Notes under the pieces: model-generated | Database searches by the model: none | Told to the model about the DNA's origin: nothing | What the model saw: only the letters and a program-made list of their open reading frames with translations | Program-made: the position numbers and the translations under genes | In this document: one piece after another, positions 5,654-36,866 of the stretch | How the letters are laid out: each line of letters opens with the position of its first letter | Numbering within the stretch: position 1 is the first letter of the stretch | Source: Escherichia coli | GTDB lineage: Bacteria > Pseudomonadota > Gammaproteobacteria > Enterobacterales > Enterobacteriaceae | Assembly: GCF_002854065.1 (NCBI RefSeq) | Contig: NZ_CP024147.1 | Reading direction: 5' to 3' (one strand) | Length of the DNA stretch: 64,000 nt

Positions 5654-6286
5654 TTATTTCACCAGTTCGGGCCATAAACGCAAAGTCGTTCCGGCAATCT
5701 GCATCAGTTTTTCCAGCGATGCACCTTCGCGTGCGCTGATCGACATCCCCTGAATAATACAATTAAGGAATTCTGCCAGATGTGTCACGTCACAGTGGGT
5801 CGGGATTTCCCCGCGCGCTTGTCGTTGACATAAAAACTGCTGCAAAGTGCGCTCTTGCATCGCATGGCGTGATTTCAACGTATTGGCGATATCTCCTGAA
5901 TCTGGGGAGAGGGTGGTGCAGTTGTTGATCATGAAGCAGCCTGCCGGGGTGTCTTTGCTGGTAAAGCAGTTGGCGATGGCAGCAAAATAGTCAGCCAGCG
6001 CAGACTCCACGCTTTTCTCTTCACAAAACAGTTGTGCTTCATGCTTAGCGGCAAAACGATCGATATAGCGGTCGAGAACGGCACGAAATAACCCCTCTTT
6101 GTTGGTAAATTCCGCGTATAGCGTGGGCGCTTTGGCTCCGGTCGCTTCGACGAGGTCCGCAAGAGAAGTCGCTTCATAACCGTGTTGCCAGAACAATTTC
6201 ATGGCCTTATCAAGCGCGGCATCTCTGTCGAACACTTTTGGGCGGCCACGGCTTTTTTTTACACATTGTGTTGAGTCAGTTGCCAT
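5654..6286 (-). CDS. comR: TetR-family transcriptional repressor ComR (YcfQ)
   Basis: 210-aa product with N-terminal TetR HTH (RGRPKVFDRDAALDKAMKLFWQHGYEATSL), divergent to bhsA. Confidence 0.85.
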   Translation of the reverse strand: MATDSTQCVKKSRGRPKVFDRDAALDKAMKLFWQHGYEATSLADLVEATGAKAPTLYAEFTNKEGLFRAVLDRYIDRFAAKHEAQLFCEEKSVESALADYFAAIANCFTSKDTPAGCFMINNCTTLSPDSGDIANTLKSRHAMQERTLQQFLCQRQARGEIPTHCDVTHLAEFLNCIIQGMSISAREGASLEKLMQIAGTTLRLWPELVK

Positions 6287-6526
6287 GATGCCGTTGTACC
6301 TGGTGACTGTGAATGAAAGGTTATTATAAAAATAATCACCTCCGTTCACCAGTCCAGATCCCATAAAAATAATTGCTTTCTATTTAACTGAAATTTAAAG
6401 ATTTTTAAATTAATTAATGATTGTTATAAAAAATATCTTGTATGTGATCCAGATCACATCTATCATTTAGTTATCGATCGTTAAGTAATTGCTTGCGACG
6501 TCATTCATCTGCATAAGGCCACTATT

Positions 6527-6784
6527 ATGAAAAACGTAAAAACCCTCATCGCTGCGGCGATTTTAAGCTCCATGTCATTTGCCAGCTTTGCGGCTGTCGA
6601 AGTTCAGTCAACGCCAGAAGGCCAACAAAAAGTCGGTACAATCAGTGCTAACGCGGGGACAAATCTGGGATCGCTGGAAGAGCAGCTGGCGCAAAAAGCG
6701 GATGAGATGGGCGCAAAATCTTTCCGTATTACTTCTGTAACCGGTCCGAATACCCTCCATGGAACAGCAGTAATTTATAAATAA
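6527..6784 (+). CDS. bhsA: multiple stress resistance outer membrane protein BhsA (YcfR)
   Basis: 85-aa secreted YhcN/DUF1471-family protein, signal peptide ...SFASFA. Confidence 0.88.
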   Translation: MKNVKTLIAAAILSSMSFASFAAVEVQSTPEGQQKVGTISANAGTNLGSLEEQLAQKADEMGAKSFRITSVTGPNTLHGTAVIYK

Positions 6785-6823
6785 GCATTAACCCTCATTA
6801 ATGCCTGCTACTGCTGATTTTTT

Positions 6824-6857
6824 CCCCGCGACATGCCGTGTAGCGGGGATTTTTTTT
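6824..6857 (+). terminator. rho-independent terminator after bhsA
   Basis: ccccgcgacatgccgtgtagcgggg hairpin followed by T9 run. Confidence 0.65.
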
Positions 6858-6866
6858 ATCCAGGAT

Positions 6867-7829
6867 TTACAGAGTTTGTGGGCTCACTTGATGACGGCGG
6901 ACATCCACCGGCATCCCGGAACGGACATCCATCACAAGTTGCATCACTTCAGCGTCAGTTTGTGCTGCATCTTTAAATGATTGCATTGCGCTATTCAGCG
7001 TAATTGGCAGCAGCTGCGGATCGTCATCAATCTTCTCTGACAGCGGCTGATGTACTTCAACCAGACGTGCACCGTTTGGTTCGGCAGAGACTTTTATCGG
7101 AGTGTTGATGATATTCACTTTGGTGCCTGGGGTGACCTGGCTAAAGAGTGTTTTGATATCGTCATCCCGCAGACGAATACAGCCAGAACTTACCCGCATG
7201 CCAATGCCGAAATCGGCGTTCGTACCGTGAAGCAAATAAACGCCGCCATAGGCCGCCAGACGAATCGCATGATGGCCCATTGGATTATCCGGTCCAGCCG
7301 GCACTACCGCAGGCAACTCAATTCCTTGTGCCTTATATCGCGCGCGAATGTTTGCCGTTGGCGTCCAGGTTGGGTTTGCACGCTTGTCAGAAACGGTGGT
7401 CACCATTGTCGGTGTCAGCGTGTCACCACCTAACTGACCAATACCTATTGGATACACGGTTACCGAATTTTTACCCGGCGGGTAGTAATAGAGACGAAGC
7501 TCCGCAATGTTGATCACAATGCCTTCGCGCGGCGCGTCTGGAAGTAGGGTTTGCAACGGGATCGTTAACACGCTGCCCGCGCGCGGTACGTAAGGATCAA
7601 CGCCGGGGTTAGCCTGTAATAGAGCGAGAAAGCCGACGTTATATTTTTTGGCGATGGCTTCCAGAGAACCACCGTCATTTTCCACCACATGAAATTTGTT
7701 TTCGCCAACCAGACGACTGCCCGCTGGCGGCAGCGGCCAGGTGTTGGCTTTTGCCGGTAGCGCCAGCGCCACGGCAGCGGCGAACGTAAAAAACGTTAGC
7801 CAGCGAGAAAAACGCGTTTTGATCATCAC
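6867..7829 (-). CDS. ldtC: L,D-transpeptidase LdtC (YcfS)
   Basis: 320-aa ORF with signal peptide, LysM-like region and YkuD catalytic motif (HGT...SSGCIRL). Confidence 0.88.
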   Translation of the reverse strand: MMIKTRFSRWLTFFTFAAAVALALPAKANTWPLPPAGSRLVGENKFHVVENDGGSLEAIAKKYNVGFLALLQANPGVDPYVPRAGSVLTIPLQTLLPDAPREGIVINIAELRLYYYPPGKNSVTVYPIGIGQLGGDTLTPTMVTTVSDKRANPTWTPTANIRARYKAQGIELPAVVPAGPDNPMGHHAIRLAAYGGVYLLHGTNADFGIGMRVSSGCIRLRDDDIKTLFSQVTPGTKVNIINTPIKVSAEPNGARLVEVHQPLSEKIDDDPQLLPITLNSAMQSFKDAAQTDAEVMQLVMDVRSGMPVDVRRHQVSPQTL

Positions 7830-7972
7830 CAAAAATCCATAATAAATATAAGGTTATTGTAATAAACAGATAAGCCTGAATTATGGATGGTGACAGTGTC
7901 GGATAGTGCAGGGAAGTGCAAAGAATTTGTAAATGTTGCAGATGGGGGCGCAGAAACGCCCCCGATTTACCA

Positions 7973-10900
7973 TTAAGCGATCGCGTTTTCTTCCAGTTCA
8001 CGCATAAACTGGCGTACCCATTCGATACGCGTTTTCCGCTCACTCAAATCCTGAATAAATTTCAGGCGCGTCGGACCATCAAGGCGGTAATGCTGCGGCT
8101 GTTTTTGCAGCAAACCAATCAACCAGGCCGGATTAACGTGATTCTTCTCGGCAAATTCGATCACCCCACCTTTCTCATTACCTTCCAGCTTCCTGATCCC
8201 CAGTTTCTGCGCTTGCTGGCGCAGACGGGCAATATCCAGCAGGGTACGCGCCGGATCCGGCAGCAGGCCGAAGCGATCGATAAGCTCGACTTTGATCTCT
8301 TCCAGTTCGTTTTCCGTTTTGGCGCTGGCAATACGTTTGTAGAACGACAGACGCGTGTTCACGTCAGGGATGAAATCATCTGGCAATAGCGACGGCATCC
8401 GCAGCTCGACTTCTGTTTGCTGGCTGGTGAGATCTTCCAGCGACGGCTCGCGTCCGGCTTTCAGTGCATCGACGGCGTTTTCCAGCAACTCCATATACAG
8501 CGAGAAACCGATGGTTTCCATCGAGCCACTTTGTTCTTCGCCAAGCAGTTCACCCGCGCCGCGAATCTCCAGATCGTGCGTTGCCAGCGCAAAACCTGCC
8601 CCGAGATCTTCCAGCGAGGCAATCGCTTCAAGACGTTTTTGTGCATCGGTAGTCATCGCTTTTGGATGCGGTGTCAGCAACCATGCATATGCCTGATGAT
8701 GCGAACGTCCGACGCGACCGCGTAACTGGTGCAGCTGCGCCAGACCGAAGTGATCCGCGCGTTCAATGATAATGGTGTTGGCTGTCGGGATGTCGATCCC
8801 GGTTTCGATAATGGTTGTACAAACCAGCACGTTGAAACGTTGATGATGGAAATCATTCATCACCCGTTCCAGTTCGCGCTCGCGCATCTGCCCGTGACCG
8901 ATGGCGATCCGCGCTTCTGGCACCAGTTCTGCCAGCCGTTCGGCGGCTTTCTGAATGTTTTCCACATCATTGTAGAGATAATAAACCTGTCCTCCGCGCA
9001 AAATTTCACGCAGGATCGCCTCCCGGACCACCAGGCTGTCATACTCACGGACAAAGGTTTTAACTGCCAGACGACGGGCGGGCGGCGTGGCGATAATCGA
9101 CAGGTCACGCATTCCGCTCATTGCCATATTCAGCGTACGTGGGATCGGCGTTGCAGTAAGCGTCAGAATATCCACGTTCGCGCGCATCGCTTTAATGCGC
9201 TCTTTATGACGCACCCCGAAGCGGTGTTCTTCATCGACAATCAGCAGGCCTAAATCTTTAAACTTGACGTCACTTTGCAGCAGTTTGTGCGTACCGATCA
9301 GAATATCGATTTTCCCTTCCGCCACTTCCGCAAGGATTTGCGTCTGCTCTTTGGCGCTGCGGAAACGGGAGATCATTTCGATACGTACCGGCCAGTTGGC
9401 GAAACGGTCGCGGAAGTTGTCGTAATGCTGCTGCGCGAGAAGGGTGGTAGGCACCAGCACCGCCACCTGCTTGTGGTTATCTACTGCCAGGAAAGCGGCG
9501 CGCATCGCCACTTCTGTTTTACCAAAGCCAACATCGCCGCACACCAGACGATCCATTGCCAGCGGCTGACACATGTCGCTAAGTACCGCATTAATGGCCT
9601 GCGCCTGATCCGGCGTGGTTTCAAACGGGAAGCTGTCGCAGAACAACTGATACTGCTCACGATCGTGTTTAAACGCGAAGCCCTCTTTGGCGGCGCGTTG
9701 CGCGTAGATATCCAGCAATTCCGCCGCCACATCACGCACTTTTTCCGCCGCTTTCTGCCGCGCGCGTGACCACGCATCGCCGCCAAGTTTATGCAGCGGG
9801 GCGTTTTCTTCCGCGCCACCTGCGTAACGGCTAATCAGATGCAGTGACGACACCGGAACATACAGTTTGGCGTCGTTGGCATAGGTGAGCATCAGGTACT
9901 CGCCAGTAATGCCGCCAGCTTCCAGCGTGGTCATTCCGGCATAGCGACCGACGCCGTGCTCCAGATGGACCACCGGCTGGCCAATATGCAGCTCCGCGAG
10001 GTTGCGGATCAGTGTATCGGGGTTGATGGTGCGGCGAGAATCCTGACGACGGCGGGCAACACGTTCACCGAGCAGATCGCTTTTGCAAATCAGCGCCAGG
10101 TTACGCACCTTATCGACAAAACCATGTTCGGCAGCGCCAATCATCAGATAACGCCCACGGTCGCTGGCTTCATCAAGACGCATAATGCGTTGCGGAGCAA
10201 TTTTAATTCGTGCGAGCAGTTCACCCAGCGCTTCACGGCGACCTTCACTTTCTACCGAGAACACCACCGGACCGTCGAAAGTCTCGAGGAACTTACGCAG
10301 CGCATCCAGCGGCGCTTTTTGTTGTGCCTGAACGGCCAGGTCTGGCAGTTTCTGGAAACCTAAATTGGCATTCGCGGCTTTTGTCGGTAAATGTTCAGTT
10401 TTTAGCTGCACTCGGGGCCAGTTTTTCAGCTCTGAGAAGAGCTCGTCCACCCGCAGCCAGAGCGATTGTGGTGGCAACAGTGGGCGCATCGGATCGACGC
10501 CGCGATTCTCAAAACGCGCCAGCGTGTCAGCCTGGAAACGTTCGGCACTGTTTTCCAGATCGCCAGTATTCACCAGCAAGGTATTGGCAGGGAAATAACT
10601 GAACAGCGGCGGCAGTGGTTCGCTGAAGAACAATGGCTGCCAGTACTCGATCCCGGCAGGTAATGTGCCTTTACTCACTTGCTGGTAAATATGTTCCGGA
10701 TCGCGCTTCACTTCGAAGGTATCGCGCCACTGGCTGCGGAACAGTTCAATTGCCGCTTTATCGGTCGGAAATTCGTGCGCGGGCAGCAGATTGATCGCTT
10801 CTACTTCCTCCAGCGTGCGCTGGCTGTCGACGTCAAACACCCGCAGGCTGTCGATTTCATCATCAAAGAAATCAAGACGATAAGGCAGCTCACTCCCCAT

Positions 10901-30116: not shown

Positions 30117-31738
<1,622 letters not shown>

Positions 31739-31747
31739 TTTGCATCC

Positions 31748-32398
31748 TTAATCTGTCACTTCTCGCCATTCGCCATTAGCAAGATTATCCAAAGAGTAAT
31801 CACCCATCGCATAACGAATCAGTCGCAGCGTGGGGAAACCAACATGGGCGGTCATGCGGCGCACCTGGCGATTACGTCCTTCAAATAAGGTGATCTTCAG
31901 CCAGCTGGTGGGAATACTTTTGCGTTCACGAATTGGTGGATTCCGCGGCCATAACCACGCAGGTTCGTCAACCAGCTCCGCGCCGGCGGGCAGGGTAGGG
32001 CCATCATTTAAGGTTACGCCATTGCGCAAGGCTTCAAGTGCGTCTTGTGTGGGAATACCTTCCACCTGCACATAATAGATTTTTCCGGTGCGTTTACCCG
32101 GCTGGGTTAAACGCGCCTGCAACGCGCCGTTATTGGTCAGCACCAGTAACCCTTCGCTATCGCGGTCAAGACGACCTGCTGCATAAACGCCCTGAACCGG
32201 GATGAATTCTTTTAATGCTTTGCGTCCGGCTTCATCGGTGAACTGCGGAAGAACATCGTAGGGTTTATTGAACAGGATCACACGCGTGGGCTGGTTTTCA
32301 GGTTTACGCTTAGTGGAGTGTTGCGAGTTTAGTCGACTAACCTGTTTTTTTCTAAAAGAAGATTTAGAATCGCTAAAGTATTTCATGGTAAATTCCAA
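31748..32398 (-). CDS. rluE: 23S rRNA pseudouridine synthase RluE
   Basis: 216-aa RsuA-family pseudouridine synthase (catalytic region [18 protein letters not shown]). Confidence 0.87.
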
Positions 32399-32718
32399 AT
32401 AGAGCTATACGCAGAGGGTAGCACAGTGTCGGATTGCATTGGACTTTGAAGGTACTCGTTAGAGGTTCAGGGTTCAGGCTCTTCAGCGCGGTTTCATCAA
32501 TACCTGGGTTAGTGAGCAGCGGTTGTGTGGCTGCATGGTGATAAATATGGCCCAATGAACACATTTTACATTGATGAATTGAATAAATATTGGTATGAAA
32601 AATAGTGTTTCTGTATTACTGATGGGTGACAGCACTTCACTGTTCAAGTTCAGGATGATGCTTTACCACTACCATCATCAGCAGTAATAAGAGGGGCATC
32701 GCAGCCTTCTTTTTTATT

Positions 32719-33054
32719 CTACTGATACAGCCATTTTCCCGCTTCTGCTGATTCCGCAAACATCCGTACAGTTAACGGTAAACGTGTTGTTTCTACCTCT
32801 TCCCGCTTGAGCTTGAACCATCGTTGAAGCAATGGTGCAGACTCCCACGGAAGGTACAAAGACCAGTCCAGATTATCCAGGTTAATCCCAAACCTCTCTT
32901 TGTATTTCCGTATAGCGTCCTCTAAATCATCTCGTGGATAGTCGAACAAATCAGAGTCCAGTTCTAACGGAATTTCCTTCCCGTGGTCATCCTGATAACC
33001 TGGAATCTCATCACGGAACAGTGCTAAAACTTCGTCTGTGATTGTTGTTGCCAT
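32719..33054 (-). CDS. hypothetical acidic 111-aa protein (family unassigned), translationally coupled to upstream ORF
   Basis: ATG overlaps the stop of the upstream ORF as TAATG; D/E-rich product MATTITDEVLALFRDEIPGYQDDHGKEIPLELDSDL...; an alternative GTG start at 33069 is possible; not a K-12 gene I recognise at this locus. Confidence 0.5.
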   Translation of the reverse strand: MATTITDEVLALFRDEIPGYQDDHGKEIPLELDSDLFDYPRDDLEDAIRKYKERFGINLDNLDWSLYLPWESAPLLQRWFKLKREEVETTRLPLTVRMFAESAEAGKWLYQ

Positions 33055-33503
33055 TAGAAGGAAGTCCACTTAATACGGTCTTGAGGTTTGGCAATCAGAT
33101 TGTATTTTTCCTGGGTACGAGTCGAAACCCTGTAAAGACTCATCGACAGTGAAACCCAACCAATCCACGGGACCCAACGAGCGATAATTGCAGCAAGCTT
33201 ATTAGATTTCTGCATCCTTACACCCACTGGTGTATGAACAGAAATACCAAAAGGCATGCGTGCATCTCTCATCAGTATACGCGCATACTTTGAGACAACA
33301 CTTGTTCCCAGGGTTGCCCCTTGCGGCTTCGCTCTTGTACCCAGCCAAGGTTGACCAGATAAGATTGCTGCACCTGATACCGAATCAATCCCCAATTCCT
33401 TACAGAATTCTTCAAGGAATATGACGTTGAGTAGTTCTATTTTGGACAGGTTCGGGTGTCCTCTATAGAAATATGTTCCATTGCGTTCTTCGGTAGTATC
33501 CAT
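33054..33503 (-). CDS. hypothetical 149-aa protein with C-proximal hydrophobic segment (family unassigned)
   Basis: ATG preceded by GGAG at a 9-nt spacing; hydrophobic stretch LAAIIARWVPWIGWVSLSMSLY; AGA/AGG Arg codons (atypical for E. coli core genes). Confidence 0.5.
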   Translation of the reverse strand: MDTTEERNGTYFYRGHPNLSKIELLNVIFLEEFCKELGIDSVSGAAILSGQPWLGTRAKPQGATLGTSVVSKYARILMRDARMPFGISVHTPVGVRMQKSNKLAAIIARWVPWIGWVSLSMSLYRVSTRTQEKYNLIAKPQDRIKWTSF

Positions 33504-33536
33504 TTTTCAACACTCCATTGTTATATAGTGTTTCTG

Positions 33537-33629
33537 TTACTTGAAGTTGATTTCTTCGGTTGCAGCAGATGCAGAACTAGAACCAGTAAAGGCAACGAGT
33601 GTCACAGCTATCAGTGCAAAGCGTTTCAT
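33537..33629 (-). CDS. putative 30-aa small ORF with signal-peptide-like N-terminus
   Basis: ATG preceded by GAGG at a 5-nt spacing; product MKRFALIAVTLVAFTGSSSASAATEEINFK; lies 33 nt upstream of the 149-aa ORF on the same strand. Confidence 0.3.
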   Translation of the reverse strand: MKRFALIAVTLVAFTGSSSASAATEEINFK

Positions 33630-34089
33630 GTGAACCTCAAAAAGGGTGGATGCCATAATTTACTCGTTGCTTGTCGCTTCAACCATGACTTTTGATAATT
33701 TTCCCAATAGTGCTCAAAGTGAGTTAGTCGCTGAATCGAGTAATGTCAAATTTTGACCAAATAGCACCCTGTTAGTTATCTCTGGTGGTTTTTTTATTGC
33801 TTAAAATCTGGTGTAACTAATTGATATTTAATACTTTATTTGAAGGTCGGGAAAATACTGTCTTTGGTCTAAAAGAAGTTTTTTGCATGGTATTTTCAGA
33901 GATTATGAATTGCCGCATTATAGCCTAATAACGCGCATCTTTCATGACGGCAAACAATAGGGTAGTATTGACAAGCCAATTACAAATCATTAACAAAAAA
34001 TTGCTCTAAAGCATCCGTATCGCAGGACGCAAACGCATATGCAACGTGGTGGCAGACGAGCAAACCAGTAGCGCTCGAAGGAGAGGTGA

Positions 34090-35340
34090 ATGGAAAGTAA
34101 AGTAGTTGTTCCGGCACAAGGCAAGAAGATCACCCTGCAAAACGGCAAACTCAACGTTCCTGAAAATCCGATTATCCCTTACATTGAAGGTGATGGAATC
34201 GGTGTAGATGTAACCCCAGCCATGCTGAAAGTGGTCGACGCTGCAGTCGAGAAAGCCTATAAAGGTGAGCGTAAAATCTCCTGGATGGAAATTTACACCG
34301 GTGAAAAATCCACACAGGTTTATGGTCAGGACGTCTGGTTGCCTGCTGAAACTCTTGATCTGATTCGTGAATATCGCGTTGCTATTAAAGGCCCGCTGAC
34401 CACTCCGGTTGGTGGCGGTATTCGTTCTCTCAACGTTGCCCTGCGCCAGGAACTGGATCTCTACATCTGCCTGCGTCCGGTACGTTACTATCAGGGCACT
34501 CCAAGCCCGGTTAAACACCCTGAACTGACCGATATGGTTATCTTCCGTGAAAACTCGGAAGACATTTATGCGGGTATCGAATGGAAAGCTGACTCTGCCG
34601 ACGCCGAGAAAGTGATTAAATTCCTGCGTGAAGAGATGGGCGTGAAGAAAATTCGCTTCCCGGAACATTGCGGTATCGGTATTAAGCCGTGTTCTGAAGA
34701 AGGCACCAAACGTCTGGTTCGTGCAGCGATCGAATACGCAATTGCTAACGATCGTGACTCTGTGACCCTGGTGCACAAAGGCAACATCATGAAGTTCACC
34801 GAAGGCGCGTTTAAAGACTGGGGCTACCAGCTGGCGCGTGAAGAATTTGGCGGTGAACTGATCGACGGCGGCCCGTGGCTGAAAGTTAAAAACCCGAATA
34901 CCGGCAAAGAGATCGTCATTAAAGACGTGATTGCTGATGCATTCCTGCAACAGATCCTGCTGCGTCCGGCTGAATATGATGTTATCGCCTGTATGAACCT
35001 GAACGGTGACTACATTTCTGACGCCCTGGCAGCGCAGGTTGGCGGTATCGGTATCGCCCCTGGTGCAAACATCGGTGACGAATGCGCCCTGTTTGAAGCC
35101 ACCCACGGTACTGCGCCGAAATATGCCGGTCAGGACAAAGTAAACCCAGGCTCTATTATACTCTCTGCTGAGATGATGTTACGCCACATGGGTTGGACCG
35201 AAGCCGCAGACCTGATTGTTAAAGGTATGGAAGGCGCAATCAATGCGAAGACCGTAACCTATGACTTCGAACGTTTGATGGAAGGCGCTAAACTGCTGAA
35301 ATGTTCAGAGTTTGGTGATGCGATCATCAAGAATATGTAA
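34090..35340 (+). CDS. icd: isocitrate dehydrogenase (NADP)
   Basis: 416-aa product [38 protein letters not shown]...; preceded by GGAGAGG RBS. Confidence 0.97.
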
Positions 35341-35364
35341 TCACTACATGTGTTAAATATTTAA

Positions 35365-35396
35365 ACGGGCGTATAACACGCCCGTTGTTTTATTTA
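35365..35396 (+). terminator. rho-independent terminator of icd
   Basis: acgggcgt-ataac-acgcccgt hairpin (8-bp stem) followed by a T-rich run. Confidence 0.7.
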
Positions 35397-35442
35397 TGTA
35401 GATATTATTAATAGCATATCGAGCATATTTATATAAAACCCA

Positions 35443-35766
35443 TTACTTGAGCCCATACGGGCATATTTTTATAATACAACTCTTATGCAAACATTTATTT
35501 GTTATTTCGCTTTCTCCTGGAGGACACTCTTGACTGCTTTTGAGTAAACTCCATAAATTCTTGTTGAATGGTGCAATGTTATAAATAGTAATAGGATATT
35601 CTTTATCCTTAAGGATAATACCAGGCTTAACAGGTGTAAATATACTTCCAGGAGGAAGAAATATAGTAGATTGATACCAGATGATCATTTTCATATCACC
35701 CCATATGGCTGAAAAAGATATGCCGCATGTAGGTTGAATTACCGTGTCAATTACTACCCACTTCAT
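35443..35766 (-). CDS. iraM: anti-adaptor protein IraM (RpoS stabiliser)
   Basis: 107-aa product [32 protein letters not shown]... matching my recollection of IraM/YcgW; AT-rich context. Confidence 0.82.
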
Positions 35767-36461
35767 TTGTTATGTCTTATCCCACGGTATTTAATATAGT
35801 TCATTTGGATGTTCATTTCTTTATTTTGCATATGAGTATATTACCCCTTCAAAAAATAAATTAATTAAAACGATTGCTTATATAAAACAAAACTTAAAGC
35901 AAGGAATCTCAATGGATGTTAAACAAAATGAGATTTAGTGAAAACAATAAATTATTCACTTCGTTTTAGATTTGTTTAGCTATAATGTTATACATTCAAA
36001 TGACTGAACATCCTGTAATTAAAACATAGCCTTTATGCTACTTTGTGCCAATTTGCTAAACATTATGGTTGCCTTTTTATATAACGATAATAATGAATAT
36101 AAGCATGACATGAGAATAAGGTTTCAATTTTTGAGTTATATAGGAAAGGTTTAACCTGTTCCTGGCTAAAATACATATAACTGGATGATGACTAAACCAA
36201 AACACATGTGCGTTAAGTATTGAAACGGGCGTATGGCACGCCCGTTGGTTTTATAAATATATTAACCGTTATAAAATAACGTATAGAAAGTCAAGTGATC
36301 ACATTTCAAATATCAATTTGATAGTATTGGCCTGGTGATTATTTATGGGTAGCAATAAAAGGACAGTATTTATCATCCATAGGGATAGTCTCTGTACTTT
36401 TATTCCCATTATGCTAATGCCTTACTGAATTATGAAGCATTTCTTAAGCATCCAACTTAAG

Positions 36462-36866
36462 CTAGATTAATGGTTTATTATTTTCTACATCTTCAATATA
36501 TAAAAGCGTATTATCAATGGCGTAGTAACTGCGTTTGTTATGATTAACATCAGTAACCCAACGGAAAACGCCCGCGTCTGCCAGTGTTGAACAGTATTCC
36601 CGAAATGTAGATTTTCCGCAAATATGAAGCAATGCGGCCTCTTTTATTTTAGCAGGGTTCTTGGTCGTACTAACTTTTAACAGGTTCCTGGTTCCTCTTA
36701 ATAACAAAACCGTGTCATCGTGAGTAATAATTCTGATGTTATCCGTAGCCAGATAATAAATGTAATGTGCAATACGGTGATGTTTTAATTCTGAATAAAA
36801 CCAGGAGAAGTTTTGCTCTTTTCTCACTTGCTCAAACATCTTTTGAAAAACAACGACCTGATCCAT
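36462..36866 (-). CDS. ycgX: uncharacterised protein YcgX
   Basis: 134-aa ORF at the conserved position between iraM and bluR. Confidence 0.75.
   Translation of the reverse strand: MDQVVVFQKMFEQVRKEQNFSWFYSELKHHRIAHYIYYLATDNIRIITHDDTVLLLRGTRNLLKVSTTKNPAKIKEAALLHICGKSTFREYCSTLADAGVFRWVTDVNHNKRSYYAIDNTLLYIEDVENNKPLI

Follow-up and report, generated by a model that had tools for sequence, protein, structure and literature searches.

The position after the DPxGL motif, at the C-terminus of the Rhs core, is the toxin slot of polymorphic toxins, and a conserved delivery gene linked to a toxin–immunity pair that diverges fast is the usual hallmark of T6SS (type VI secretion system) effector islands. 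Cargo of the Hcp lumen is limited to roughly 20-25 kDa or less. Here we describe an island in a 64,000-nucleotide stretch of Escherichia coli DNA (contig NZ_CP024147.1 of assembly GCF_002854065.1; hereafter the window), in which acquired DNA interrupts rluE next to icd and carries two overlapping genes, the first for a basic 149-aa protein of the STM2901 family (DUF8209) and the second for an acidic 111-aa protein of the DUF1493 family. From comparison with related loci we consider it probable that the pair encodes an effector and its immunity protein of the polymorphic-toxin class, which would serve as Hcp cargo in hcp-linked relatives and stands as an orphan in the E. coli island.

Several described systems resemble the pair in part. 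Like the Rhs/YD polymorphic toxins (RhsA/RhsB type), DUF8209 homologs occupy the toxin slot after DPxGL and are followed by a DUF1493 gene; unlike them, the protein of E. coli stands alone and has neither an Rhs shell nor a PAAR or other delivery domain, and DUF8209 has no assigned activity. Tse2 is about 158 aa long, compared with 149 aa here. As in the T6SS Hcp cargo Tse2/Tsi2 of Pseudomonas aeruginosa (PMC3325213; bioRxiv 10.64898/2026.06.15.732508), a small protein is paired with a small acidic cytoplasmic immunity protein, and as with Hcp cargo effectors including Tce1 (PMC13323088), DUF8209 relatives lie directly after hcp and have a size that suits Hcp rings. For DUF8209, searches by sequence and fold returned no similarity to Tse2, Tce1 or any solved structure. 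The preprint describes Hcp cargo as having no recognizable signals (10.64898/2026.06.15.732508), whereas the standalone DUF8209 family carries a conserved N-terminal tag. The Hcp-ET proteins of E. coli (PMC6730261, PMC6099711) likewise combine a conserved Hcp module with a variable toxin and an immunity gene, often in orphan islands away from the main T6SS cluster, but the predicted DUF8209 toxin is a separate gene that starts 10-14 nt after the hcp stop, with no fusion. Ssp6 of Serratia marcescens (PMC6889166) is also a small helical effector with no enzyme-like fold; it has no detectable homology to the window protein, for which membrane depolarization is a proposal, and the DUF1493 partner here has neither a signal peptide nor a transmembrane (TM) segment. 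The family's namesake in NCBIfam, the STM2901–STM2902 pair of Salmonella Typhimurium, is again a two-gene unit without hcp, located at a different chromosomal site, beside invH at the edge of SPI-1 (pathogenicity island 1 of Salmonella).

The two genes are members of the STM2901/DUF8209 and DUF1493 families by hidden Markov model (HMM); their placement in a functional effector family is a prediction. A first-pass annotation of the window had suspected an undescribed accessory system at this locus. It is accessory and has no published function, but both genes are already named in RefSeq ("STM2901 family protein" and "DUF1493 family protein", no function recorded), and what appears to be new, as far as the literature searched shows, is their reading as a toxin–immunity pair linked to the T6SS.

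Relatives of the Gene Pair and Their Genomic Context

The 149-aa gene has a GGAG 10 nt before its ATG, and its stop overlaps the DUF1493 start by one base (TAATG). Its product scores 157 bits against the NCBIfam model NF045926 (STM2901 family; cut-off 110), with residues 8-142 covering profile positions 1-140 of 140, and PF26636 (DUF8209) is recorded in the precomputed annotation of a 99%-identical protein (P0001) and of all relatives; a local Pfam-A search returned only an insignificant KELAA-motif match. The 111-aa protein matches Pfam PF07377 (E=1.3e-29), its residues 4-110 covering positions 3-107 of the 108 in the model. It has no helix-turn-helix or ribbon-helix-helix match in Pfam, no 19-residue hydrophobic stretch fit for a signal peptide or TM segment, and an N-terminus that is not hydrophobic.

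With a profile built from 14 family members, 408 relatives were found among 1.84 billion representative proteins. An N-terminal extension of at least 60 aa is present in 36 of 213 retrieved proteins, and in all 36 the DUF8209 domain ends no more than 13 residues from the C-terminus. At least two of them, P0193 (787 aa) and P0167 (612 aa), have an RHS-repeat/YD shell whose core-end DPxGL comes just before DUF8209; DPxGL occurs in about 10 of the extended homologs, and none is an Hcp–DUF8209 fusion. Among the AFDB50 neighbors of the predicted structure there are likewise many proteins named "RHS repeat-associated core domain", from genera such as Flavobacterium, Pedobacter and Apibacter. Judged by these predicted architectures, the family has the placement expected of polymorphic toxins, at the C-terminus of large delivery proteins, the window protein itself being standalone.

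A scan of one genome per species, with the N-terminal motif as search pattern, gave 49 loci, all in Enterobacterales. A DUF1493 gene lies directly downstream of DUF8209 in 48 of these, the 49th being cut by a contig end. The same order is found on a Bacteroidota-like contig (L017, with PorP/SprF and a DUF6443 giant protein), where a 548-aa Rhs-type protein (P0129) ends in DUF8209 and is followed by a DUF1493 gene, and the pairing therefore spans phyla. Directly upstream on the same strand, an hcp gene (PF05638) is present in 28 of the 49 loci and ends 10-14 nt before the start of the predicted toxin; hcp is otherwise arranged within ~2 kb in eight more. The hcp modules occupy differing chromosomal sites, such as yajR–cyoE in Citrobacter and the neighborhood of a DUF3413–sulfatase gene in Winslowiella, and some genomes hold several paralogous pairs (three each in Raoultella terrigena and Erwinia typographi).

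Across 25 comparable loci, the upstream Hcp is 61-100% identical to the Citrobacter reference (median 91%), compared with 40-98% for the predicted toxin (median 72%) and a median of 68% for the predicted immunity protein; at one locus (L045) an Hcp of 100% identity accompanies a toxin of only 52%. Identity of the DUF1493 protein drops along with that of its partner, and in these comparisons the family appears to have the downstream, co-varying gene that marks an immunity function. In a separate observation, two diverged DUF8209–DUF1493 pairs occur with an opposite-strand full hcp and a truncated/hybrid hcp in an accessory region (L049, Mangrovibacter plantisponsor, 5848-9045; L048) that looks like an array of swapped effector cassettes.

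It is because of the Rhs C-terminal slot, the linkage to DUF1493, the linkage to hcp and the combination of a conserved Hcp with a diverging pair that we favor an effector–immunity function. We predict that the basic DUF8209 protein is the toxin and that the acidic DUF1493 protein, made from the overlapping downstream gene, stays in the cytoplasm of the producer, where it would bind and neutralize its partner. In hcp-linked relatives the toxin would be packed inside the Hcp tube and injected into neighboring bacteria, and loading into the lumen seems the most likely route because the toxin is small (16.8 kDa, a mass compatible with the Hcp lumen) and the pair lies 10-14 nt behind hcp. The N-terminal tag MDTTEExNGTYFY is a candidate Hcp-loading element. 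In Bacteroidota and other phyla the same domain would act as a warhead at the C-terminus of Rhs/YD-repeat proteins. The copy in E. coli may have lost, or never had, a linked hcp, and would either borrow an Hcp encoded elsewhere or be kept mainly for the protection that its immunity gene gives against the toxin of neighbors.

An overlapping two-gene operon for a small basic and a small acidic protein, in an island with no secretion gene, would also suit an intracellular toxin–antitoxin (TA), addiction or abortive-infection module that serves phage defense or locus stabilization and involves no secretion. Both proteins match PHROG families with no assigned function (phrog_21993, 1.3e-36; phrog_20802, 1.1e-10), and homologs are sometimes named "phage membrane protein". 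We nevertheless regard such a module as distinctly unlikely. In a typical type II TA system the antitoxin is usually encoded upstream and has a DNA-binding domain; here the predicted toxin comes first and the neutralizer second, with no DNA-binding domain, an arrangement that is not of type II, and the toxin has no TA match in Pfam, the PDB or PADLOC. No PADLOC defense model matches either protein or a 30-codon open reading frame (ORF) upstream of the pair. Rhs C-terminal fusions, and hcp linkage in 28-36 of the 49 loci, would be unexpected. The one phage-collection record that contains the island, ON470584.1 (Escherichia phage vB_EcoM-689R6; L067), has the chromosomal order hflD–mnmA–nudJ–rluE–island–icd beside an e14-like integrase and excisionase; we rejected phage carriage of the island, and read this record as an e14-like prophage call over-extended into the chromosome. 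A 132-nt ORF of the rluE–icd spacer is labelled "alpha-amylase" in the same record. In the window, the e14 prophage is not integrated at icd.

Insertion of the Island in rluE

The first-pass annotation had placed the extra DNA in the spacer between rluE and icd, taken to be about 100 bp in K-12. Extra DNA is indeed present, with 1703 bp between the two start codons (ATG at 32386 and 34090), but the corresponding distance is annotated as 171 bp in the K-12-type strain DL21, and the insertion lies inside rluE (table 1). A first hint that it was outside the spacer came from the short match shared with genomes lacking the island, which overlaps annotated rluE. In an anchored pairwise alignment with the K-12-type locus the junctions fall at ~32361 on the rluE side and 33868 on the icd side, so that the insertion point is within the rluE coding sequence, at native codon ~17. 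The search for flanking direct repeats that the annotation had proposed found, at both junctions, an exact 11-nt core TCTAAAAGAAG inside an imperfect 20-nt repeat, the copies being 1517 bp apart. The right copy corresponds to native rluE codons 13-17, and in the alignment the 11-nt repeat consists of the matching rluE codons of the native and imported copies. The ORF list and three-frame translation contain no integrase, recombinase or other mobility gene in the island; with no integrase, and with the repeat explained as rluE codons, the island lacks the marks of an integrase-mediated mobile element. On the other side, 33868-34100 is identical to the K-12-type strain at 233 of 233 positions, in agreement with the earlier view that the promoter and ribosome-binding site of icd are intact.

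Table 1. Features of the rluE–icd region, in window coordinates
Feature	Position	Strand	Description	Basis
nudJ	31277-31738	minus		ORF list
rluE, present form	31748-32386	minus	212 aa; ATG 32386; new N-terminus compared with K-12	ORF list
Diverged rluE 5' end	32310-32386	minus		Anchored alignment
Left junction repeat copy	32346-32365		TTTTTTCTAAAAGAAGATTT; core TCTAAAAGAAG at 32351-32361	Repeat search and junction alignment
Island	32362-33878		1517 bp extra compared with K-12-type genomes, one repeat copy counted	
Left island flank	32387-32718	minus	Non-coding; between DUF1493 stop and new rluE start	
DUF1493 gene	32719-33054	minus	111 aa; pI 4.5; predicted immunity protein	
STM2901-family/DUF8209 gene	33054-33503	minus	149 aa; 16.8 kDa; pI 10.0; predicted toxin	
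30-codon ORF	33537-33629	minus	Signal-peptide-like sequence MKRFALIAVTLVAFTGSSSASAATEEINFK	
Right island flank	33630-33867	minus	AT-rich, GC 0.33-0.39; island-specific	
Right junction repeat copy	33863-33882		TTTGGTCTAAAAGAAGTTTT	Repeat search and junction alignment
Stranded native rluE 5' end	33868-33918	minus	17 codons	100% identity to K-12-type locus from 33868
Sigma-70-like promoter of native rluE	33917-33945	minus	ATGAAA, 17-nt spacer, TATAAT	Consensus scan, 10/12
icd	34090-35340	plus	Intact; upstream region unchanged	

The composition of the segment marks it as foreign and horizontally acquired. Its GC content is 0.32-0.47 compared with 0.50-0.58 in the flanking genes, and AGA/AGG, whose use had first pointed to horizontal acquisition, account for 5 of the 11 Arg codons of the 149-aa gene, compared with 0-1 in rluE, nudJ, mnmA and icd; the comparison of GC and codon use that had been called for thus bears out the original suspicion.

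The insertion has remodelled rluE itself. RefSeq gives the same 639-nt (212-aa) rluE in island carriers. Between 32230 and 32365 this gene differs from the K-12-type sequence at 14 of 136 aligned bases, the mismatches being clustered in 32310-32365, and the final ~20 bases of its 5' end, with the new start codon among them, lack an equivalent in K-12. Over 5426 genomes the rluE 5' allele is bimodal, with identity of at least 95% in 376 and of 80-90% in 5043, and the diverged allele co-segregates with the island. Because it travels with the island, the imported block extends roughly from 32310 to 33867 and came with an rluE 5' end of its own. An intermediate allele (90-95%) is present in eight genomes, which may be recombinants of island and non-island haplotypes. 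A search for the donor of the diverged RluE N-terminus found no closer relative. We propose that a foreign block of ~1.56 kb, including the diverged rluE 5' end, entered together from a relative in which the cassette lay upstream of rluE, with a homologous anchor in rluE on one side and illegitimate joining at the 11-nt microhomology on the other.

The start of native rluE that was stranded on the icd side runs on into the island as a 33-codon hybrid ORF (33817-33918, minus strand), which could be translated. The promoter of native rluE, recognized by its match to the consensus, would now be directed into the island. Of the AT-rich region 33640-33950 that was first taken for a promoter region of the cassette, the stretch 33868-33950 is the native rluE 5' end with this promoter; the island-specific flank at 33630-33867 possibly holds a promoter of the cassette's own. 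A terminator scan detected no minus-strand terminator between the DUF1493 gene and rluE, making read-through into rluE plausible, whether it starts in the cassette or at the old rluE promoter. The cassette has the same direction as the rluE transcription unit that encloses it, so that the old promoter could read the toxin gene, the immunity gene and the rebuilt rluE in turn.

The first-pass annotation described a minus-strand operon of three ORFs. Its coordinates and the TAATG overlap stand as described, but the 30-codon ORF is probably not a gene, and we rejected it as the first gene of the operon: it is not conserved, is unannotated in RefSeq and has only weak profile matches. It is the most variable part of the island (10.8% variable columns): one allele (L001) has lost 6 bp in frame, and another (L018) is shifted out of frame by 1 bp. 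The island flanks (32387-32718 and 33504-33867) contain no convincing ORF, an Rfam scan of 32200-34150 at E<=1 gave no match, and the flanks have no homology to the 49 other Enterobacterales loci, to which similarity is confined to the two coding sequences.

The two-gene cassette is also flanked by an exact 13-nt direct repeat ATAGTGTTTCTGT (32602-32614 and 33525-33537; spacing 923 bp), one copy lying 22 nt before the ATG of the 149-aa gene and the other ~105 nt past the DUF1493 stop. By our estimate about 0.03-0.1 repeats of this kind are expected by chance in 1.9 kb, and the pair could mark an older nested insertion. Past icd, the GC content falls to 0.24-0.35 at 35300-36500, a region that contains iraM (35443-35766, minus strand); iraM, ymgK, ymgL and ycgX are annotated past icd in carrier and non-carrier strains alike.

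Presence and Absence of the Island

Megablast with 32399-34089 as query, in which a carrier was defined by query coverage of at least 80%, matched 5425 of 5426 complete E. coli genomes. Coverage reaches this threshold in 374, and the remainder match only query positions 1470-1691 (window 33868-34089); the interior of the query (32400-33860) recovers the same 374 genomes. The presence/absence check proposed at the outset thus finds the whole segment in these 374 genomes and not in K-12-type genomes, and its ORFs are not conserved core genes, so that neither of the two findings that would have spoken against an accessory segment was made. The island is a true presence/absence polymorphism in 6.9% of complete E. 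coli genomes. Carriers include E. coli IAI39 and a cryptic-clade Escherichia (L018, 97% identical). Among plasmid records, a partial copy of the island is present on one E. coli record, and homologs of ~68% identity from Salmonella and Klebsiella are on very large records. In the E. coli genome searches, 11 matches to the rluE–icd region sit on records typed as plasmids.

In E. coli the pair might instead be a decaying remnant, its genes carried passively since the insertion supplies the 5' end of rluE and perhaps its transcription. No hcp is linked to the pair, the rluE start codon depends on the island haplotype, and the 30-codon ORF upstream is already decaying. Insertion sequence (IS) elements have also reached the cassette: an IS3-family element splits the 149-aa gene in IAI39 (L068, NC_011750.1, 4155-5917), and IS2 lies between the 3' end of this gene and the DUF1493 gene in strain CUWW06 (L069, 979-2207), the DUF1493 gene being intact in both. 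Substitutions between Escherichia alleles that are nonsynonymous equal or exceed those that are synonymous. We think this explanation unlikely, since both coding regions are full length in three island alleles that differ by 2-3%, in 370 of the 374 carriers the island aligned as one piece that covers at least 80% of it, and the two coding regions are its least variable parts (2.2% and 3.3% variable columns, compared with 4.5-10.8% in the island flanks).

Several of these observations nevertheless weigh against an effector–immunity function in E. coli. The counts of nonsynonymous to synonymous substitutions, 6:4 in the 149-aa gene and 5:5 in the DUF1493 gene, indicate that constraint within Escherichia is weak, and the IS elements with an intact DUF1493 gene fit toxin–immunity biology but also decay. 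The E. coli 149-aa protein is standalone and has no recognized trafficking domain. The island has no hcp, vgrG, PAAR or other T6SS gene, and none was detected in the 64-kb window as a whole; the island flanks hold no hcp remnant by tblastn or blastn, and tblastn of the window with Hcp gave no significant match, for which reason we call the pair an orphan. A Citrobacter hcp DNA query finds Hcp-family genes in 1350 E. coli genomes, a count over the collection as a whole. Conservation of the tag is also less telling than it appears: in standalone toxins that are less than 50% identical overall, residues 1-13 are 83% identical compared with 37% elsewhere, a contrast that motif-based retrieval inflates among the 49 loci. 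Rhs-fused DUF8209 forms begin at the YxYxG that follows and do not have the tag. Lastly, the literature searched contains no functional statement on STM2901, STM2902, DUF1493 or DUF8209, and none on toxicity, neutralization or secretion; STM2901 and STM2902 appear only as SPI-1-adjacent cloning landmarks or as unchanged transcripts.

Predicted Fold and Mode of Action

Modelling of the 149-aa protein with AlphaFold2 (AF2) from 14 sequences was unusable (predicted local distance difference test, pLDDT, 59). Rerun with 78 sequences, it reached a pLDDT of 80.6 and gave two long antiparallel helices with two small beta-hairpins. By single-sequence or profile search the protein has no PDB relative, and the predicted fold has no solved relative and shows no similarity to a known toxin fold. 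The sole PDB match is a 33-residue motif, in which the segment GRxxPxxGWxxLAYDxxxIxY (residues ~110-142) matches the phage tape-measure segment LTRLIPIVGWALLAYDIGAIMYDQSQTF (PDB 8vjh chain Q, 764-796; E=3.7e-4). The most hydrophobic 19-mer, residues 103-121, has a Kyte–Doolittle (KD) value of 1.37, and a value of 1.6 is reached by 20 of 78 relatives. S68, S71 and R109 are invariant across the family, and T67, G50, P112 and G115 nearly so.

How the predicted toxin would act can be proposed only tentatively. It is possible, though on balance doubtful, that the long helical hairpin enters the inner membrane of the target from its cytoplasmic face and abolishes the membrane potential. The second helix of the hairpin would carry the conserved GRxxPxxGWxxLAxD segment, and DUF1493 would mask the hairpin. 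We arrive at this guess because of the helical model, the hydrophobic stretch 103-121, the "membrane protein" annotation of some homologs among the AFDB relatives and the match to the tape-measure segment. Immunity proteins of membrane-targeting effectors are usually membrane or periplasmic proteins. Against a membrane step, an acidic, cytosolic DUF1493 protein would by analogy be more typical of a cytoplasmic enzymatic toxin, the hydrophobicity of the helix is borderline, and the polar residues T67, S68, S71 and R109 could also make up an active site. The acidic partner and the polar invariant residues would be just as compatible with a toxin that acts in the cytoplasm as an enzyme or by binding.

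The same "membrane protein" annotations, the helical fold with its moderately hydrophobic helix and the lack of similarity to known toxin folds could be taken to describe a non-toxic membrane-associated pair, a small membrane protein with a cytosolic partner or chaperone, that happens to co-occur with hcp islands. This is very improbable in our view, as DUF8209 at the extreme C-terminus of Rhs proteins after DPxGL occupies the toxin slot, and a conserved hcp with a rapidly diverging pair, together with several paralogous pairs per genome, is the pattern of effector–immunity diversification.

Within an effector–immunity function, a more specific proposal is that DUF8209 represents a new toxin fold with a new target, that the tag of its free-standing forms directs loading into a dedicated, conserved orphan Hcp, and that DUF1493 possibly mimics acyl carrier protein (ACP); taken as a whole, we rate this as a long shot. 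The tag would then be a sequence-defined signal for Hcp cargo, a feature that current work reports to be missing. The best PDB sequence matches of DUF1493 are acyl carrier proteins, at values that are not significant (E=0.24, 0.72 and 0.79), and hhalign of DUF1493 with E. coli AcpP gives a probability of 3.8%. The ACP-likeness is at most suggestive, and it is speculative that DUF1493 acts as an ACP-like decoy for the real target, which would be ACP or an ACP-dependent enzyme. The C-terminal DUF1493 motif PLTVxMFAESAKAGKWLY is strongly conserved and is present in the 111-aa protein.

Implications

The island provides a clean example of an acquired cassette that settled in a housekeeping gene and gave it a new start codon, a new N-terminus and probably a new promoter context, yet left the gene undestroyed. 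As a presence/absence marker it distinguishes ~7% of complete E. coli genomes. If the effector–immunity interpretation is correct, DUF8209 and DUF1493 would constitute a widespread effector–immunity family in many genera of Enterobacterales, and in Bacteroidota, Burkholderia and others DUF8209 would be the warhead of Rhs proteins. With their near-invariant 13-residue tag, the hcp–toxin–immunity modules would then offer a tractable system for the study of how Hcp chooses its cargo, and the island may affect the competition of E. coli with Citrobacter, Enterobacter and Klebsiella in the gut.

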